Below, piece after piece: positions 1,965 to 36,803 of a stretch of 41,902 nt of DNA. How positions within the stretch are numbered: position 1 is the first letter of the stretch; every line of letters begins with the position of its first letter. The DNA is from a virus (lineage: Duplodnaviria; Heunggongvirae; Uroviricota; Caudoviricetes). Under the pieces are notes generated by a model, which had not been told where the DNA came from, ran no database searches, and saw only the letters and a list, made by a program, of their open reading frames with translations. Both the position numbers and the translations under genes were made by a program. The DNA lies in the IMG/VR virus record IMGVR_UViG_2778261315_000003; one strand, 5' to 3'.

Positions 1965-2447
1965 CTATCTGGTCAGGGTGTCGTACTGTTTTTCGCAGAC
2001 TCTTCCGGCTTCGGCTGCCCGGTCAGCATACTCTGCCAGTTGTCTGTTTCTCTCGAGAGATTTGCTGAGCACGTCGGCAAGCAAAACTCCGGTGTCTGCG
2101 GCTGACGTCCCAGCGCCGACAATGGCGTTATACTGCCTGAGCTGCTCACGGATGGCAAAGAGTTGTTGCTGCAACCGGCCAGCGCGAGCGGCAGCATCAA
2201 GAGCATCATTGCGCGCCTGGTCGATCCTCTGCTGCGCTTCACGTTCATTGATCGATTTCTCCTGTTCGTAGTGCTGACGAACTATCTCATCTTCAGCTTT
2301 GCGGTCTTCCTTCGCCTGCGCATACCCGGCATCGTACTGACGACTGCCGTGTGCATTCCAGGCTACAACTCCTGATATGACCAGAACAGCAAGCATCGCC
2401 ATGATAACCAACTGTTTCCAGTATGCTTTTGCGAATGCCCAGATCAT
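1965..2447 (-). CDS. Rz-like i-spanin (inner-membrane spanin)
   Basis: 160 aa, N-terminal TM helix then charged coiled-coil; directly downstream of endolysin with ATGA-type overlap; contains embedded lipoprotein ORF in another frame. Confidence 0.6.
1973..2209 (-). CDS. Rz1-like o-spanin, embedded in Rz in alternate frame
   Basis: ORF 1973..2248 contains [14 protein letters not shown] lipobox; start placed at internal Met (2209); Pro-containing short mature peptide, fully nested in Rz gene. Confidence 0.55.
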   Translation of the reverse strand: MMLLMLPLALAGCSNNSLPSVSSSGSITPLSALGRQPQTPEFCLPTCSANLSRETDNWQSMLTGQPKPEESAKNSTTP

Positions 2448-3073
2448 ACCGCCAGCACCTTACTGGCAGTGACGTACCGCGCGCGCCGGTCGTCGATGCC
2501 ATTCCTGCCACCATTGATAATCAGAGTTACACGTGCAATATCGCCGGTATACTTCATGCAACCTTTGCTGGAGAAGAACCACGCCGCGCTACGAGCCGCG
2601 TATTCGTCCTGCGCCAACAGTTCAGGATTCTCCAGCAGGTCAACTTTCAGACCGTTTCCACAGTCACGATAGTTATTCAAACCGGTAATCTGGATAAGCC
2701 CGCGCCCACGGTAATTCCAGCCATCACCAGGGGCATTGTTCCCCATGCGTTTGCTGTACACCAGATTTGCGATCGCGCGCTGGCGCTCGAGTGGCAATGG
2801 TGGTTCACCAGCACGGCGACCAAGTGCATTAGCCTGCCCCTGAGTGAGACGCCCAGCCCGAACGAAGTTAGCCAATCCGGTTACGCTGTAGTTGAAATTT
2901 TCCTGCAACCGGGTGAAGCCTCCAGACTCATGCCCGACCTGAGCAATAAACATTGCCTGATCTTCTGGTTTGCTGATACCAAACTCTTTCATCGCAGAAG
3001 TTATATGCGAGAACCAGCGAGCGGCCAGTTCCTCGCTGATACCAGCAGCTCGCTGGAATTGTTTAATCTCCAT
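2444..3073 (-). CDS. endolysin, glycoside hydrolase family 19 (chitinase-like)
   Basis: 209 aa; motifs [30 protein letters not shown] typical of GH19 phage lysins. Confidence 0.85.
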
Positions 3074-3371
3074 GTTTAGACCTCGTTATTTTGAAAATCT
3101 GAACTACGTTACCGCGCGTTTTAATGACTGCAGCAAGCATGACAGCGTTGATAATGACCTCAGATAAATCCACAACCATTGGCGTGCGTAACCAGATTGC
3201 ATAAGCGACACGAACTGGAATGCTGGCCGCAGCAACAATCAGGAAATAAGCAAGCCACCCACCCCATCGCCTGTGTTGAGAACCGTTTCTCCGAAATGTG
3301 GCAACTCGAACTGCTATACCGGCGCAAATAACCGCATTGGTGGTAAGCAAAAAAAGCTCATGAGTTACCAT
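3063..3371 (-). CDS. putative holin (about 3 TM helices)
   Basis: 102 aa, three hydrophobic helices, charged C-terminus, immediately upstream of and overlapping the endolysin start. Confidence 0.55.
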
Positions 3372-3771
3372 CGTCTTTTCTCCCCGGAATTAACTCGCGT
3401 GGATTATCGGAACGGTGATAGAGCCAGATCCCAATTCGCACAGCGACGATTGCTGACACAAATGCACCGGCAGAGAAAACAATCCCTTTCTCGAAAGAAT
3501 CCTGTGTGATTGTAGGGATCAGGCTGGCTATGCCGATAAGAATTGATGCTGCTGGTTTGTAGAATAGAAGTCCGCAGAGAAAGCTAAGCATCGACAAGAG
3601 CACGCGACGACGAATGGGATACTCTACCGCAGAGGTAACAAAAATCACCGCCCCAGCCAAAGACCCCAAAGCAACCTCAGGAGGAACTCCTGCTATCACT
3701 GCCGCCAAAGAACTCATGCTAAGCCACTGATTTAAAGTTTCACTGGTTAGTTGAGCTGACATGTTTTCCAC
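3358..3771 (-). CDS. lysis-cassette membrane protein (holin or antiholin-like, about 4 TM)
   Basis: 137 aa, multiple hydrophobic segments, first gene of lysis cluster after an AT-rich promoter region. Confidence 0.45.
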   Translation of the reverse strand: MENMSAQLTSETLNQWLSMSSLAAVIAGVPPEVALGSLAGAVIFVTSAVEYPIRRRVLLSMLSFLCGLLFYKPAASILIGIASLIPTITQDSFEKGIVFSAGAFVSAIVAVRIGIWLYHRSDNPRELIPGRKDDGNS

Positions 3772-7144: not shown

Positions 7145-7248
7145 GTTAAATCTCCAGATAGTCGCAGCACCCGTTGCGCCGCATATCTGGTTATTCTATT
7201 ACCTGGAAAACCACATATGGATATAAAGGCTGTAAATACGAATAGATA

Positions 7249-7263
7249 TTACCTTTCAGGTAA
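7249..7263. promoter_or_regulatory. palindromic operator-like site TTACCTTTCAGGTAA
   Basis: Perfect TTACC-N5-GGTAA; intergenic between tailspike start and divergent small gene. Confidence 0.6.
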
Positions 7264-7339
7264 TTTGCAAAACGTGCTGGATAGCAAACAAATTATTTGC
7301 TACTGTATAAATATACAGTTATTGCATGGAGAAGATAAG

Positions 7340-7597
7340 ATGCAGCAGTATCACTATCCACTGGAAGACGGATTTACCGAAAGGATTCACACGCCGGGAG
7401 GCGTCAGGTCACTGGTGGAGGGATCGCACTTGATGAAATTACTCCGGGATCTCGATAAGGATGGATTTAATGTCGATGGCCCACTTGCCGAACTGACTGC
7501 ACTGATTAACTACGTCACCAGCTCACAGATGTCTATGCGGGATCTGCAAACACATCTCGACTATTGTGCCGAACAATTACGAAAACAAACCCGGTAA
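7340..7597 (+). CDS. small protein paralogous to the C-terminal domain of the Bro-N protein
   Basis: Start moved to internal Met with GGAG RBS, because ORF 7217.. overlaps the operator; roughly 40% identity by eye to the Bro protein C-terminus (IH.P.GV..L.E.S.LM.LL..L..DG..V.G..AELT...Y...RD.QTH..Y). Confidence 0.5.
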   Translation: MQQYHYPLEDGFTERIHTPGGVRSLVEGSHLMKLLRDLDKDGFNVDGPLAELTALINYVTSSQMSMRDLQTHLDYCAEQLRKQTR

Positions 7598-7619: not shown

Positions 7620-8348
7620 CTATCGTTTCGCTTTGTGCTCATCCCAGCACGTTTTGCACCATGCCATTAAGCCGTCCGCATTTTGATTATTAGGGTAAAA
7701 GCTGGTTCGTTTTCTGCGGACATTACAAATTGGGCACCACTTCATATGGCGTGTATTCTTTGGGCCATCGAGACACCTTGCACACCATTTAGTCAATCCA
7801 TCTGGATTTTTTGACGATTTCCTGAATTTTTCATATGGAAGGTTTATTCTGCATCGCAAGCACTGCTTGCTACCACTTGAAACTCTGTTAGCTGATTCTT
7901 CTTTTGGCGGCGATACAGAAGGTATTCTTGCTGGCTCTGATATTGCCTGAGGTGCTTTTTTAGATGACTGAGACGATATGTCATCACCAGGGAATCTTCC
8001 ATGATATGCCGGACGCGTTGACACTCCAGGTGGAATCTCAGCTGTAAACGGCTTTGGCTGAATCAGTTGCCTCTCTTTTGCTAACTCCTGCTGTTTATAA
8101 TATGTCTGGATTACCGCACTATCATAAGCAGGAGGTGCGGAAATATTAGGCGCATTACCTCCAGTTTTTTGAAACTGAGTAGAGGTGTGTTCTATCACCT
8201 GTGTACGATTAATCGTTATCTCCCCATCTTCGGTCTTTATCGTTTTGTTATGATTAACGACCGTACGATCAGAGATCTTAGTCTTGTTCTGGTTGATAAC
8301 GTAAATAATCACCGCAACCACACCAACAACTATCCAGAAAACTTCCAT
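7620..8348 (-). CDS. membrane-anchored protein with Pro-rich linker and tandem C4 zinc-ribbon-like repeats
   Basis: 242 aa; N-terminal TM FWIVVGVVAVIIYVI; repeated C-x2-C ... NPDGL..WC..C units near C-terminus; own promoter region with two operators upstream. Confidence 0.6.
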   Translation of the reverse strand: MEVFWIVVGVVAVIIYVINQNKTKISDRTVVNHNKTIKTEDGEITINRTQVIEHTSTQFQKTGGNAPNISAPPAYDSAVIQTYYKQQELAKERQLIQPKPFTAEIPPGVSTRPAYHGRFPGDDISSQSSKKAPQAISEPARIPSVSPPKEESANRVSSGSKQCLRCRINLPYEKFRKSSKNPDGLTKWCARCLDGPKNTRHMKWCPICNVRRKRTSFYPNNQNADGLMAWCKTCWDEHKAKR

Positions 8349-8368: not shown

Positions 8369-8383
8369 TTACCTTAAAGGTAA
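8369..8383. promoter_or_regulatory. palindromic operator-like site TTACCTTAAAGGTAA
   Basis: Perfect TTACC-N5-GGTAA, 21 bp upstream of the 7620..8348 gene start. Confidence 0.6.
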
Positions 8384-8461
8384 TATCTTGCTTTCAGGTG
8401 ATCAAGCGTTAAACGCAATCAACCAAATACGGTTGATTTTAATGTTTCTTCGCGCTTATCA

Positions 8462-8476
8462 TTACCTTTACGGTAA
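8462..8476. promoter_or_regulatory. palindromic operator-like site TTACCTTTACGGTAA
   Basis: Perfect TTACC-N5-GGTAA in the divergent intergenic region between the 7620..8348 and Bro genes. Confidence 0.6.
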
Positions 8477-8743
8477 ATTTACATCGCACTCCTCTTGTGC
8501 CATAGTAATCGGGCACTGGCAAAATCCAGTGCCGGGATTGGTCTCCCGGATTACTACAGAGGCACATATGCCGCATAAGCGGTTTTTTTATGTGTAAAGC
8601 GCACCTATTCTATGGTGGGCTGTGTGGGGGCACCGAAAGGTGCGCCGGGTTCCTTTGTAGCCGGTAAGACCAACTCTGCACAGTTCACCACCATCTGATT
8701 GGTCTCAGCGGTGGTGATTAACCTAACTACAAAGGTGATCGCC

Positions 8744-9436
8744 ATGAATACCAAACCTTCCATCTTTTCCTTTGAGTCATCCTGCCAGATCCGTATGTTC
8801 ATGATTGACGGAGAACCTTGGTTTGTCACCAAAGATGTGTGCAATGCTTTGAATATTGATGTTACACAAGCGAGAAAACTTGATAAAAAAGGCTGGAACA
8901 AAAAGGGGCTGTATTCAATACAGACCCCTGGTGGAATACAAGAACTATCCATCGTTTCAGAATCAGGTCTCTACATCCTTATTCTGCGTTGCAAAGAGGC
9001 AATGACTGAAGGAACGAGAGCATTCAGATTTCTTGAATGGGTTACAGGTGAGGTTCTTCCTCAGATCCGCCGCACCGGAAGTTACATTAAAAACTCGCTC
9101 CCGCAGGAAGAACGCATAAAGATGGTTGCCGACCAGGTAGCCAACGCCACGGCGTCAGCAGTAATGCAGGCGATGAAGATAGAGAACAAAACCTACAGTG
9201 CCCCACTGAAGCCCGGCTACCGCAGCCTGATTCATTCTCCGTCTGGTGTTCTCGGCCTGACGGAGAACTCACTGCTGATGAATCTGCTGAACCAGTTACA
9301 GGACGACGGGCACGACGTATCGGGCGCGGCGGCGGAGCTGACCACCATGTTCTGTTACATCGTTGGTGTGAGCAAATGCCTGCGTGATATCCAGACACAC
9401 GCAGAGTACATCAATGACAAGGCAGGGTTCTTCTGA
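8744..9436 (+). CDS. Bro-N domain protein, putative antirepressor
   Basis: Bro-N signature FSFE...IRMFMIDGEPWFVTKDVCNALNI...TPGGIQ...SESGLYILILR...FLEWVTGEVLPQIRRTGSY; start at Met 8744 with AGGTGA RBS. Confidence 0.8.
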   Translation: MNTKPSIFSFESSCQIRMFMIDGEPWFVTKDVCNALNIDVTQARKLDKKGWNKKGLYSIQTPGGIQELSIVSESGLYILILRCKEAMTEGTRAFRFLEWVTGEVLPQIRRTGSYIKNSLPQEERIKMVADQVANATASAVMQAMKIENKTYSAPLKPGYRSLIHSPSGVLGLTENSLLMNLLNQLQDDGHDVSGAAAELTTMFCYIVGVSKCLRDIQTHAEYINDKAGFF

Positions 9437-9521
9437 CGGGCGGCGGCACATGGATGTGCCTACAATTATCAATAATTGTTTACACTCGTTGCAGTTAAAA
9501 GCATTATACTCATGTTTAAAA

Positions 9522-9536
9522 TTACCCGATTGGTAA
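9522..9536. promoter_or_regulatory. palindromic operator-like site TTACCCGATTGGTAA
   Basis: Perfect TTACC-N5-GGTAA, 22 bp upstream of the 9558 start codon. Confidence 0.6.
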
Positions 9537-9557
9537 AGTCGATTGGTTGAGGTTCAT

Positions 9558-9884
9558 ATGAGCAGAAGATATGTCAAGGAGCTGGCTATAGAGTCTGGCA
9601 CCCCTTTGGGTATCGTTCCTGGCTCCAACTATGCCAAGGCTTTAAACCGAGACTCTGTCGTCAAAGTTATATCAAGAGACATGAATATGGTCGGAGACGA
9701 TCTCAGACGGTCAGAAAATCGTGTTTATGCTGAATATATAGTAAAGAACGGAAAAAAAATTGCAGCGCCTGCTGGCGGAAAATGGGCAATAGTGACAGGG
9801 AAAAACTCAAATGCAAGAGGAAAACCAGAAGCTAAAGGAATGTCCTTCGACAAATATGCAAAAATCTATTGGGCAACCAAGTGA
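9558..9884 (+). CDS. hypothetical basic protein (about 108 aa)
   Basis: ORF with GAGGT RBS; Lys/Arg-rich; first gene of an operator-controlled two-gene cassette. Confidence 0.45.
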   Translation: MSRRYVKELAIESGTPLGIVPGSNYAKALNRDSVVKVISRDMNMVGDDLRRSENRVYAEYIVKNGKKIAAPAGGKWAIVTGKNSNARGKPEAKGMSFDKYAKIYWATK

Positions 9885-10359
9885 TAACGAAGAAACTGAG
9901 TTCGAGGAAGTTGAGGAAGGGCTAAGTAACGAGATCATTCAACACCCAGATGCCTTCACAAGAGTTCTTGATCGCCCTGAAATTCAGGAGATAGTTGTCG
10001 CTCACCATGCGTTTCAGGGTCCGCTTCCTCCCCCCTATCTGCTTCGCGGGTATCAGGATATTTTACCTGATGCCCCCGAACGCATCTTCCAGCTGACGGA
10101 GAAGGAGTTTGCTCACCGCCAGAAAATGGAGGAAAAGGCACTTGACGGGGCTATTAATAGAGATAAACGTGGGCAGTGGTTTGGCCTGAGTGCAACTATT
10201 TTTACAGTAGCTTGTGCAACATTATTAGGTTTAACAGGTCATGAAGTTCTAGCTGGCACAGTGATCGGTACAGTTGTTGCAGTGGCTGGTATTTTCGTTC
10301 TTAGACAAAAACCAAGCATCAAGAAGAAATCTGAAGACAACAAACCTGAAGAAAAGTAA
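9856..10359 (+). CDS. membrane protein, DUF2335-like (2 C-terminal TM helices)
   Basis: Acidic N-terminal region; motif HHAFQGPLPPPYLLRGYQDILPDAPERIF as recalled for DUF2335; two TM helices near C-terminus; start could be 9811 or 9856. Confidence 0.55.
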   Translation: MQKSIGQPSDNEETEFEEVEEGLSNEIIQHPDAFTRVLDRPEIQEIVVAHHAFQGPLPPPYLLRGYQDILPDAPERIFQLTEKEFAHRQKMEEKALDGAINRDKRGQWFGLSATIFTVACATLLGLTGHEVLAGTVIGTVVAVAGIFVLRQKPSIKKKSEDNKPEEK

Positions 10360-10382
10360 GCCCGCGCTGCGGGCTTTTTTGT
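10359..10382 (+). terminator. rho-independent terminator
   Basis: GCCCGC-GCTG-CGGGC followed by TTTTTTG immediately after the stop codon. Confidence 0.6.
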
Positions 10383-10452
10383 GGGCGAAACAAAAGTCAG
10401 TGCTACACTCATTGACGCCACATTGAGGTGGTTTATAGATGGAAATTTCACA

Positions 10453-10614
10453 ATGAAAAAAGCATTTGCTGCACTGTTCGTTTTGTTGTCTCTGGTAGCT
10501 TCAACTCAGGCCTTTGCCGGTCGTTGTCAGCACGACAGCGATACTGCCGCTGACGGCTCCCGCTGCGGTGGGCATTCTGCGGATTCCCGCCCGGGCGGCG
10601 GTGGCATTCGTTAA
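10453..10614 (+). CDS. small secreted Cys-containing peptide (about 53 aa)
   Basis: Start at internal Met MKKAFAALFVLLSLVASTQAFA (signal peptide), Gly/Ser/Asp-rich mature part with 2 Cys; candidate TTGACG-16-TATAGA promoter upstream; terminators on both sides. Confidence 0.45.
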   Translation: MKKAFAALFVLLSLVASTQAFAGRCQHDSDTAADGSRCGGHSADSRPGGGGIR

Positions 10615-10645
10615 AAACAAGGCCGCGAAAGCGGCCTGTTTGATC
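10612..10645. terminator. bidirectional terminator between convergent genes
   Basis: GGCCGC-GAAA-GCGGCC hairpin flanked by A-run on one side and T-run on the other. Confidence 0.55.
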
Positions 10646-35833: not shown

Positions 35834-36064
35834 TCATGAGTAGAAGAAGTATGCCAGTTCTGCTTTTGAGCGCAGCCATTGTCTTGTTTTACAGGCTTTA
35901 AAAAGCCCATTCATCAATACCTTACCTGGCATTTTGCGCTTACCTGTTAAGTGAGTCTGGATATAGTGACTCGTCGTTCCGGCTTCCTGTGCGAAGGCTT
36001 CACGCTCATCCGGAGTAAGTGCAAGCCAGTGCTTTTTGAAATCGAAATGTCCGTTATCGCTCAT
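35834..36064 (-). CDS. Cro-like small DNA-binding regulator
   Basis: 76 aa, divergent from repressor gene, HTH-like LTPDEREAFAQEAGTTSHYIQTHLTGKRKMP. Confidence 0.5.
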   Translation of the reverse strand: MSDNGHFDFKKHWLALTPDEREAFAQEAGTTSHYIQTHLTGKRKMPGKVLMNGLFKACKTRQWLRSKAELAYFFYS

Positions 36065-36100
36065 AGCTATTGCCTGATATTTATTTCAGATAATAAATAT

Positions 36101-36115
36101 TCACCCATAAGGTAA
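36101..36115. promoter_or_regulatory. operator-like site variant TCACCCATAAGGTAA
   Basis: One-mismatch variant in the repressor/cro intergenic region. Confidence 0.4.
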
Positions 36116-36131
36116 CAAAAATCAAGGATAG

Positions 36132-36146
36132 TTACCTATGAGGTGC
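36132..36146. promoter_or_regulatory. operator-like site variant TTACCTATGAGGTGC
   Basis: Two-mismatch variant, adjacent to the perfect site at 36149. Confidence 0.4.
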
Positions 36147-36148
36147 AT

Positions 36149-36163
36149 TTACCTGTTGGGTAA
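36149..36163. promoter_or_regulatory. palindromic operator-like site TTACCTGTTGGGTAA
   Basis: Perfect TTACC-N5-GGTAA in the divergent repressor/cro promoter region. Confidence 0.6.
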
Positions 36164-36218
36164 TATTGCTTTAAATTGAATCATCTACTGATTCATATAT
36201 GAGGCGATTTTCCAGAAA

Positions 36219-36803
36219 ATGAAAAGTATCCAGGACGTCCGCAGGCAAAATCTCAACGACTTGATCGACCGTGAATTCAATGGTGTTCAGACGCGGATGG
36301 CAGAAAAACTTGGAACTCAGGCAAATCTGGTAAACCGCTGGGCTCTTGGCAAGAAGGTTATCGGCGACCAGGTTGCGCGAAAAATTGAAGCTGCCGCCAA
36401 TAAACCCCGTAACTGGCTTGATATCGATCGCTCGCTTTCTCAGGAAGGTTTTCAGCCTGTCGGCCCAAGCGACATTGGTCAGCTGGCGGCTCACAACCTG
36501 GAACGCTGGATGAGCGAAAGCCGCGACCTTTCAACTCAGGGAAAACTTCACCGCGCATCCGGCGTCGCCCAGGTGACAATCAGCCGCCTGTTAAACAATG
36601 AGGTCAGTGTTTCCATTTCCACCCTGGAGAATGTTGCATCAGCATTCGGGCGTCACGGCTATGAATTACTGATTCACCCGCACGACCCTGCGACCATCAA
36701 CTATGACCGCTCGCGCTACGCATTGTTACCCGAAACCGAGAAAGCAAAGATCGAAAGTTATATTGAATTTGTCATCAACCAGAACGAAAAAAACAAACAA
36801 TAA
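36219..36803 (+). CDS. tandem-HTH (XRE-family) repressor, CI position, no peptidase domain
   Basis: 194 aa; two HTH-like segments (VQTRMAEKLGTQANLVNRWALGK and LHRASGVAQVTISRLLNNE); no S24/LexA-like C-terminal domain visible. Confidence 0.65.
   Translation: MKSIQDVRRQNLNDLIDREFNGVQTRMAEKLGTQANLVNRWALGKKVIGDQVARKIEAAANKPRNWLDIDRSLSQEGFQPVGPSDIGQLAAHNLERWMSESRDLSTQGKLHRASGVAQVTISRLLNNEVSVSISTLENVASAFGRHGYELLIHPHDPATINYDRSRYALLPETEKAKIESYIEFVINQNEKNKQ

Follow-up and report, generated by a model that had tools for sequence, protein, structure and literature searches.

A DUF2335 membrane protein and its small basic partner as exchangeable cargo of an epsilon15-like prophage

A two-gene cassette in which a small basic protein precedes a DUF2335 membrane protein raises the question of whether such a pair belongs to the phage proper or is cargo, and of what it does for its carrier. 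The cassette lies at positions 9522–10359 of a 41,902-nucleotide (nt) viral DNA (IMG/VR record IMGVR_UViG_2778261315_000003), the whole of which we call the window and which is an epsilon15-like (Uetakevirus) Escherichia coli prophage. A preliminary description, made from the letters alone, had placed this pair in a prophage accessory region with promoter-, operator-, and terminator-like elements, and both the pair and its setting are borne out below. We find that the cassette is a horizontally exchangeable accessory operon (moron) of the epsilon15-like prophage; to judge by an operator-like site over its promoter, it is probably part of the immunity regulon. The gene pair itself already stands in public records as "hypothetical" plus "DUF2335 domain-containing"; what is new here is the obligate partner, the slot, and the link to the regulon, and a literature search found no published mention of an obligate upstream partner of DUF2335. 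DUF2335 is widespread in phages and prophages, and the partner together with the immunity-operator slot makes of it a testable two-protein system, for which the cultivable phage vB_EcoP_ZX5 (ZX5), with a near-identical cassette, renders experiments feasible. Through the operator regulon and the cargo slot one can also readily approach the way in which epsilon15-like phages use and exchange their accessory genes. For a phage biologist there is little surprise in this, and the function may prove to be an ordinary role in exclusion or lysis tuning.

An exchangeable operon in the accessory slot

The cassette occupies a slot in the accessory region that separates the tailspike gene from the ejection-protein genes, bordered on the left by the Bro-N anti-repressor gene ant (8744–9436) and on the right by a gene for a signal-peptide protein of 53 amino acids (aa; 10453–10614). 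It is 99–100% identical in phages EC.W1-9, in ZX5 (99.1% identity to the window cassette), and in 68 of 5426 complete E. coli genomes, whereas the slot flanks are found in 496 of these genomes. Behind the same flanks stand other cargoes, namely a small open reading frame (ORF) with a YafO-family toxin gene, a DUF4760 protein, a 55-aa plus 147-aa pair, and a 210-aa protein; in phage phiv142-3 the slot holds the tiny orf9 and orf10 (variants recorded at loci L002, L003, and L103–L105; window slot 9300–10620). The window, TL-2011b, and phiv142-3 are near-identical up to about position 9461, past the hairpin that ends the shared left flank (Table 1), and then diverge. The right breakpoint falls immediately 5′ of the terminator-like hairpin, and the terminator and the sequence downstream of it are the same in TL-2011b and phiv142-3, so that the terminator is part of the slot and not of the cargo. 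Relatives with unchanged neighbors, TL-2011b and phiv142-3 among them, thus carry other cargo, and since this exchange takes place behind the same flanks, the cassette is dispensable as well as exchangeable.

These results modify two points of the preliminary description. It had held that absence of the ORFs from close relatives with unchanged neighbors would speak against them; such absence does occur, but it marks dispensable cargo rather than unreal genes. It had also ended the cassette in a strong terminator of its own; a hairpin with a T-run is indeed there, but it belongs to the slot and is shared with phages that carry other cargo.

Morons, such as lambda bor and lom and HK97 gp15, are independent accessory transcription units, and the cassette resembles them in being present or absent among near-identical phages and in having promoter- and terminator-like elements. 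In the cassette these elements are sequence predictions, consisting of consensus matches, a conserved −10/operator arrangement, and the terminator-like hairpin; its GC (guanine plus cytosine) content is slightly below that of its neighbors, and PHROGs files the family of its second protein under the moron category. The cassette also recurs in unrelated settings: a Rahnella lambdoid prophage has it behind the Q antiterminator gene, a siphophage behind a tail-tip gene, and an Enterobacter phage-plasmid between rep and parA. Positions behind Q or tail genes, or at a prophage end, as seen in other phages, are typical of morons. Classic morons differ in being expressed from the prophage, whereas this cassette, with its immunity operator, is predicted to be off in the lysogen.

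The YafO cassette of TL-2011b, which many E. coli prophages carry too, is a counterpart in layout. It shares the slot, the −10/operator unit, the terminator, and the 53-aa gene, and it too consists of two overlapping genes with the small one first; its proteins are unrelated, however, and YafO belongs to a soluble toxin family whereas the second protein of our cassette is a membrane protein without toxin similarity. The phiv142-3 cargo gene orf10 has been reported to raise serum resistance (PMC7724020). We rejected the idea that the slot is a recognized defence hotspot, as PADLOC returned no match among the alternative cargo proteins. Separately, Enterobacter locus L007 (1–6841) has the cassette, behind a promoter of the same type, on a chromosomal island that resembles a defence island; an Abi_2-domain gene and a gene for a 1283-aa protein directly precede it there, and an IS3 element follows.

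The 53-aa protein follows the slot whatever its cargo. It has a signal peptide and a Cys/Gly-rich tail and falls in phrog_14503 ("transmembrane anchored protein"); its gene also trails the DUF2335 pair in the Rahnella lambdoid prophage (L010, 5316–5477) and in Klebsiella phage BUCT711.

Table 1. Features of the cassette, its flanks, and the operator set, in window coordinates
Feature	Position	Strand	Description
Hairpin GGCACAT-GG-ATGTGCC	9445..9460	+	inverted repeat just 3′ of the ant stop codon (9434–9436); ends the shared left flank
Palindrome ACAATTAT-CA-ATAATTGT	9462..9479	.	perfect, AT-rich, touches the TTTACA hexamer; unique in the window
Promoter candidate P1, TTTACA-17 nt-CATTAT	9479..9507	+	sigma70-like, 9 of 12 matches; prediction
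Promoter candidate P2, TTAAAA-16 nt-TAAAAT	9495..9522	+	sigma70-like; −10 abuts the operator
Putative operator TTACCCGATTGGTAA	9522..9536	.	copy of TTACC-N5-GGTAA; would cover about −7 to +9 of P2
ORF A	9558..9884	+	108 aa, predicted basic cytoplasmic partner; phrog_10654
A8 homopolymer	9752..9759	+	inside ORF A
ORF B	9811..10359	+	182 aa, predicted DUF2335 inner-membrane protein; phrog_3996 "membrane protein"
ORF B, juxtamembrane domain	10027–10176
ORF B, TM1 (predicted)	~10177–10233
ORF B, loop			GLTGHE
ORF B, TM2 (predicted)	~10240–10308
ORF B, C-tail			charged
Terminator-like hairpin AAGCCCGC-GCT-GCGGGCTT, then TTTTTTG	10358..10382	+	8-bp stem, 6 GC pairs, 3-nt loop, and T-run at 10358–10376; overlaps the ORF B stop codon
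Exact operator copies	7249, 8369, 8462, 9522, 26931, 30139, 33806, 33868, 36149, 36861, 36923
One-mismatch operator copies	3624, 30121, 35764, 36101
Immunity switch	35834–36803		76-aa Cro-like gene (35834–36064, −) divergent from 194-aa HTH_3 repressor gene (36219–36803)

The DUF2335 protein and its upstream partner

ORF B, the second gene of the cassette, matches the Pfam model DUF2335 (PF10097) at E = 1.6e-15 and 57.2 bits (cut-off 25), its residues 73–122 covering model positions 1–50 of 50. The profile search suggested in the preliminary description therefore returns the whole model, and ORF B is a full-length member of DUF2335 and PHROG 3996 with two C-terminal transmembrane (TM) helices. 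The acidic N-terminus and the motif reported earlier are present as well (isoelectric point, pI, of 4.2 over residues 20–70; motif HHAFQGPLPPPYLLRGY). Kyte–Doolittle 19-residue means above 1.6 mark hydrophobic segments at about residues 123–141 and 144–166, flanked by basic residues, and the predicted topology is N-in/C-in with a six-residue outer loop; the two-helix hairpin is rich in Gly, Ala, and Thr. Among 22 homologues, residues G70, P71, L72, P73, P75, Y81, H102, and R120 are invariant. The AlphaFold model, of low confidence, has helices at 88–141 and 145–165, the long first helix continuing into TM1. The family is easily confused by name: a "DUF2335 phospholipase" mentioned in type VI secretion papers was rejected as a hint to function, since the domains meant are Tle1-type lipases of a different family. 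That lipase domain we take to be DUF2235, and the label looks like a slip. The name "DUF2335" is applied to the Tle1-type lipase/phospholipase domain of type VI and type IV secretion effectors in three papers, so that searching text for this name yields misleading clues to function.

ORF A begins with an ATG 5 nt downstream of GAGG (9549–9552) and encodes a protein with 21 Lys and Arg residues, a pI of 10.0, and no hydrophobic segment. Its relatives appeared scarce at first: a word search gave seven clusters, and an exhaustive profile search of 1.84 billion proteins gave 11 representatives. No relative of ORF A was found in Pfam, NCBIfam, PADLOC, or the PDB, and none of the partner core by profile search in Pfam or the PDB. 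This core spans about 50 aa and reads G-[ST]-x-L-x-I...Y, then 13–20 residues, then D-[MW]-x-x-V-G-x-D-x-x-x-[AS]; enterobacterial partners carry, beyond it, a basic linker that varies and a C-terminal F-x-K-Y-A-x-L-Y-x-x-T-K that is conserved. The motif "G-S-x-L-x-I-x-P" had hinted at an AbrB/MazE-like antitoxin, which we rejected at an hhalign probability of 0.1%.

The association of the two genes was examined at 98 loci with a DUF2335 ORF, 80 of them from a scan of viral contigs, which fall into 23 lineages at 60% identity. A hidden Markov model (HMM) of the partner core matches the ORF directly 5′ of the DUF2335 gene at 88 of these loci and nothing else in 893,000 residues of six-frame translation. 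Five further loci begin at a contig end, and their upstream sequence cannot be scored; the last five form one lineage (that of L098), for which the partner was confirmed by inspection of L095 alone. Counting these, a partner stands directly upstream at all 93 loci with upstream sequence, across the 23 lineages (88 by HMM, five via L095), and the soluble-plus-membrane pairing emphasized in the preliminary description thus proves strongly conserved. When the model was rebuilt with each lineage left out in turn, the upstream ORF was still the best match at E ≤ 1e-3 in 19 of 23 lineages; it was weak in three and absent in two. The small upstream ORF occurs in Klebsiella prophages and chromosome, an Enterobacter island, the Rahnella lambdoid prophage, a siphophage, the Enterobacter phage-plasmid, Klebsiella phage RAH1, and Streptococcus Javan prophages. 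Public annotation often leaves it uncalled in spite of its conservation, as in Klebsiella phages RAH1 and BUCT711 and several Logan/NCBI contigs (examples are L016, 2778–2975; L019, 2691–3041; and L004 and L007, 4742–5077).

The ORF B frame is +1 relative to ORF A, with a 74-nt overlap from the start at 9811 used by RefSeq; the ZX5 record uses a second ATG, equivalent to 9856, which leaves 29 nt. Across lineages the overlap ranges from none to about 86 nt. The C-terminal motif of ORF A is encoded within the overlap and conserved there, while the N-terminus of ORF B is variable over the same stretch. Both ORFs are, on this sequence evidence, real genes, kept across many lineages with the ORF A motif conserved inside the overlap, and the pair is predicted to encode translationally coupled proteins: a cytoplasmic basic partner and an inner-membrane-anchored DUF2335 hairpin whose conserved domain and termini are cytoplasmic. 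A programmed frameshift yielding an A–B fusion, hinted at by the public sequence P0004 and by the A8 run within ORF A, was rejected because P0004 has several separate indels and because overlap length and frame vary by lineage; we concluded that assembly errors in P0004 and ordinary translational coupling account for the arrangement. Frameshifted or truncated ORF A variants at the A8 run in public assemblies (P0005, P0006) are probably sequencing errors. A decayed chromosomal remnant (P0007, L102) has its deletion junction just 5′ of the same run, and the deletion extends from within ORF A, whose 3′ part is lost, across all of ORF B and into the 53-aa gene, whose 5′ part is gone.

Flanking genes do not provide a common function. 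In distant phages the pair is co-directional with its surroundings, immediately preceding TerS/TerL, standing within the head genes, or following the lysin gene, as in the Streptococcus Javan prophages. A conserved functional neighborhood was rejected, as the flanking genes are mixed (terminase, head, tail, RadC, toxin, Abi, Ant, Rep, ParA), and this mixture across lineages indicates that the pair works as a self-contained unit. Some of these positions bear on a possible role as membrane tether or organizer, in which DUF2335 would anchor a basic, possibly nucleic-acid-binding partner and so localize replication or packaging, an idea borrowed from phi29 p16.7. The partner is strongly basic; the phage-plasmid has the pair right behind its replication initiator gene, and several phages have it right in front of terminase or head genes. 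Nevertheless we regard a tether as highly improbable: domain searches with ORF A found no DNA-binding or other nucleic-acid-binding domain, the linker and the basic character are lost in short partners of 60–70 aa, and the pair is dispensable, being swapped for unrelated cargo in close relatives.

Putative operator and promoter of the cassette

The sequence TTACC-N5-GGTAA, which overlaps the cassette promoter, is present in the window in 11 exact copies and in 15 copies with at most one mismatch, compared with 0.70 expected. It often takes the form TTACCT-N3-AGGTAA, and its copies are mostly intergenic and overlap −10-like hexamers. Between the Cro-like and repressor genes of the immunity switch lie the exact copy at 36149, the one-mismatch copy at 36101, and a partial one near 36133; further copies form a pair after the repressor gene or stand in the ant promoter, in the promoter of a gene for a 242-aa protein, and upstream of the replication genes. 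From the positions of these sites we infer that TTACC-N5-GGTAA is the immunity operator of the phage. In TL-2011b the −10/operator unit stands before the YafO cargo as well, and in phiv142-3 before the tiny ORFs. The preliminary description had given the cassette its own operator-bearing promoter, and an operator-like site does lie over the −10 hexamer, but it is not private to the cassette, being a phage-wide element with copies at the switch and in front of other cargo.

The same −10-like arrangement, in which the hexamer ends on the first T of TTACC, recurs in the cassette promoters of Klebsiella (TTGACG-16-TAAGAT) and Rahnella (TTGCAA-16-TATTAT), which cannot otherwise be aligned with that of the window, as well as in TL-2011b (TACTAT) and at the ant promoter of the window (TATCAT). 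Candidate P1 is conserved only in the E. coli/Enterobacter-type upstream region. Promoter-like sites are no more frequent here than in shuffled sequence (5 against 5.9), so that the promoter call rests on conservation and context, not on the scan. Read-through from ant into the cassette is possible too, since the hairpin after ant is weak. The palindrome upstream of P1 was considered as the main operator and rejected, as it has no second copy in the window and, among the cassette promoters, is conserved in the E. coli/Enterobacter type alone. It is kept perfectly in E. coli-type cassette promoters with diverged flanks (L026–L033) and is degenerate in L007 and L036, and the promoters of Klebsiella and Rahnella lack it; it may serve as an UP-like element or bind a second regulator.

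The 194-aa repressor is 100% identical to ORF21 of ZX5 and to the repressors of phiV10, phiv142-3, and EC.W1-9, and because of this identity these phages should share immunity with the window phage. Overexpression of ZX5 ORF21 abolished free phage and lowered lysin and holin transcripts by more than 99.9% (PMC9782041). With the immunity operator over −10/+1 of the cassette, this repressor would keep it shut off in the lysogen, and infection or induction would turn it on together with the early genes. This predicted scheme fits two published observations: a ZX5 lysogen had no host phenotype (PMC9782041), and phiv142-3 orf10, which sits in the same slot, was among the most up-regulated prophage genes in serum, alongside the replication genes orf40 and orf41 (PMC7724020).

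Repression in the lysogen followed by early lytic expression, as predicted here, would be unusual for a prophage defence gene, and it bears directly on classical superinfection exclusion, in which an inner-membrane protein made by the prophage blocks incoming DNA as do P22 SieA and HK97 gp15. The slot region, between tailspike and ejection-protein genes, presumably corresponds in position to P22 immI/sieA. That location, the predicted inner-membrane character of ORF B, and the PHROGs moron category of its family would all suit exclusion. We nonetheless judge it very unlikely, as the operator predicts silence in the lysogen, the conserved part of ORF B is cytoplasmic and its periplasmic loop tiny, and the family depends on a cytoplasmic partner and reaches across distant lineages, whereas Sie proteins are narrow in distribution and encoded by single genes. 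Homology to SieA, SieB, Imm, or gp15-type proteins was not found; the Pfam and PHROG matches consist of DUF2335, phrog_3996, and a sub-threshold Nodulin-like hit (E = 0.0064, 16.5 bits, cut-off 24.7). In P22, immI/sieA is likewise an accessory region beside the tailspike gene with genes for an anti-repressor and an inner-membrane protein (PMC10883804). SieA differs from our cassette in having no sequence similarity to it and in lacking its cytoplasmic partner and cytoplasmic conserved domain, and P22 places control with Mnt and Arc, whereas the cassette is apparently controlled through the operator of the main repressor.

The phage-wide operator also speaks to the role of ORF A. As the repeat accompanies the cassette in four genetic backgrounds, we at first favored ORF A as an autorepressor acting through TTACC-N5-GGTAA; this was rejected because the repeat also precedes unrelated cargo (TL-2011b, phiv142-3) and has 11 copies in the window, the switch region being among their sites. 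There is thus no indication that ORF A regulates its own expression, which counts against a toxin–antitoxin or addiction-like pair, in which DUF2335 would damage the membrane as a toxin unless restrained by the basic protein encoded upstream. Such a pair would accord with a small upstream gene that overlaps the downstream one, with the small ORF plus YafO-family toxin carried in the same slot by many relatives, with the phage-plasmid copy between rep and parA, and with toxin–antitoxin- or Abi-like neighbors at some loci. We still hold it to be distinctly unlikely: searches of Pfam, NCBIfam, PHROGs, and PADLOC linked neither protein to a toxin or antitoxin family, the partner neither resembles AbrB/MazE nor matches a DNA-binding domain, and in many phages the pair is embedded in late structural operons.

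Candidate functions of the pair

Searches for function gave few leads. PADLOC v2.0.0 returned no match for ORF A and only a chance-level one for ORF B (E = 0.039, to a methyltransferase model), PDB profile searches with ORF A, ORF B, and the partner core returned nothing, and Foldseek against the PDB and BFVD returned only other DUF2335 proteins or noise. The soluble-plus-membrane pairing had been called typical of exclusion or defence modules; with no PADLOC match, no homology to known exclusion, toxin, or holin proteins, and no informative fold match, we do not uphold that assignment.

We tentatively favor, as possible rather than probable, a lytic-phase inner-membrane complex that acts in phage competition or membrane gating by altering permeability or entry, with the partner as its regulator. 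ORF A and ORF B most likely form one membrane-bound complex, since the partner lies directly upstream of DUF2335 in all lineages examined and usually overlaps it, and the basic partner would bind the acidic or the conserved cytoplasmic part of the DUF2335 protein. At the inner membrane the hairpin may oligomerize and change permeability or block entry, with ORF A as its regulator or sensor. This proposal is consistent with the charge complementarity between the acidic N-terminus of ORF B and the basic ORF A, and with the placement of the pair in lytic-phase units, whether behind an immunity-operator promoter, after Q, before TerS, among head genes, or after the lysin gene.

Several points weigh against this proposal. 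Gene linkage is the sole basis for complex formation, and repressor binding to TTACC-N5-GGTAA is likewise deduced from the positions of the sites. The cassette copy of the operator differs from the more frequent TTACCT-N3-AGGTAA form and may be a weak site, which would allow some expression in the lysogen; the operator also precedes the cassette in the Enterobacter island and the Rahnella lambdoid prophage. A periplasmic loop of about six residues is a poor fit to a direct block of incoming ejection proteins. The AlphaFold models of both proteins are of low confidence (predicted local distance difference test, pLDDT, 52 and 60), and the searches produced no characterized homologue, no PADLOC, NCBIfam, or PDB match, and no fold relative other than DUF2335 proteins.

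Lytic expression and a membrane hairpin could also serve a lysis-timing module, in which the DUF2335 hairpin would act like, or on, a class II-type holin and the partner would modulate it, much as T4 RI and RIII act on holin T. The predicted N-in/C-in two-TM hairpin with its abundant small residues agrees with this, as does the predicted lytic-phase expression, and the pair follows holin and lysin genes in Streptococcus Javan phages and opens the late operon before TerS in others. In the window, however, the lysis genes (~2444–3771, −) are 6 kilobases away with the tailspike gene between, and the phage already has two holin genes. Pfam and PHROGs gave no match to holin or antiholin families, only the Streptococcus Javan phages have the pair linked to lysin, neighbors are heterogeneous across phages, and the slot swaps the pair for unrelated cargo; we therefore consider lysis timing an unlikely role. 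T4 RI and RIII are a membrane-tethered and a small cytoplasmic protein that act at the inner membrane during lytic growth. Their analogy with the pair is one of layout only, as there is no homology and the pair is not linked to a holin gene in this phage.

Lambda RexA and RexB offer a second likeness in layout alone, that of adjacent genes for a soluble protein and a small multi-pass membrane protein in a temperate phage. RexB has four TM helices, whereas ORF B has two. RexAB is expressed in the lysogen, whereas the cassette is predicted to be repressor-controlled, with neither homology to RexAB nor a PADLOC match. A wider proposal, which we find doubtful but worth stating, is that DUF2335 and its partner (motif G-S-x-L-x-I ... 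D-W-x-x-V-G-x-D) constitute an unrecognized two-component membrane system of tailed phages with a mechanism of its own, distinct from holins, toxin–antitoxin pairs, and Sie-type blockers, extending from Enterobacterales phages to those of Streptococcus and, in epsilon15-like phages, wired into the immunity regulon as lytic-phase cargo. The probability left over by the membrane complex and the four alternatives to it (tether, exclusion, toxin–antitoxin pair, and lysis timing) we reserve for something not yet considered.

Other operator copies of the window adjoin features that may concern the same regulon. An ORF (7217–7597) beside the tailspike gene has at its start a perfect LexA-box-like site (CTGTATAAATATACAG, 7303–7318), 40 nt 3′ of the operator copy at 7249, which suggests a small SOS-controlled gene, possibly an induction trigger. 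The leader of ant is long (8433–8743), with promoter-like sites and an operator copy at 8433–8506 and a hairpin with a T-run at 8570–8583, 160 nt before the ant start; this hairpin may be an attenuator or a small-RNA element. The 242-aa protein (7620–8348, −), which has the operator copy at 8369 in its promoter region, combines an N-terminal TM helix with two C-terminal Cys-rich zinc-ribbon repeats and matches endonuclease VII, HNH, and Lar-like PHROGs and, weakly, Stc1.

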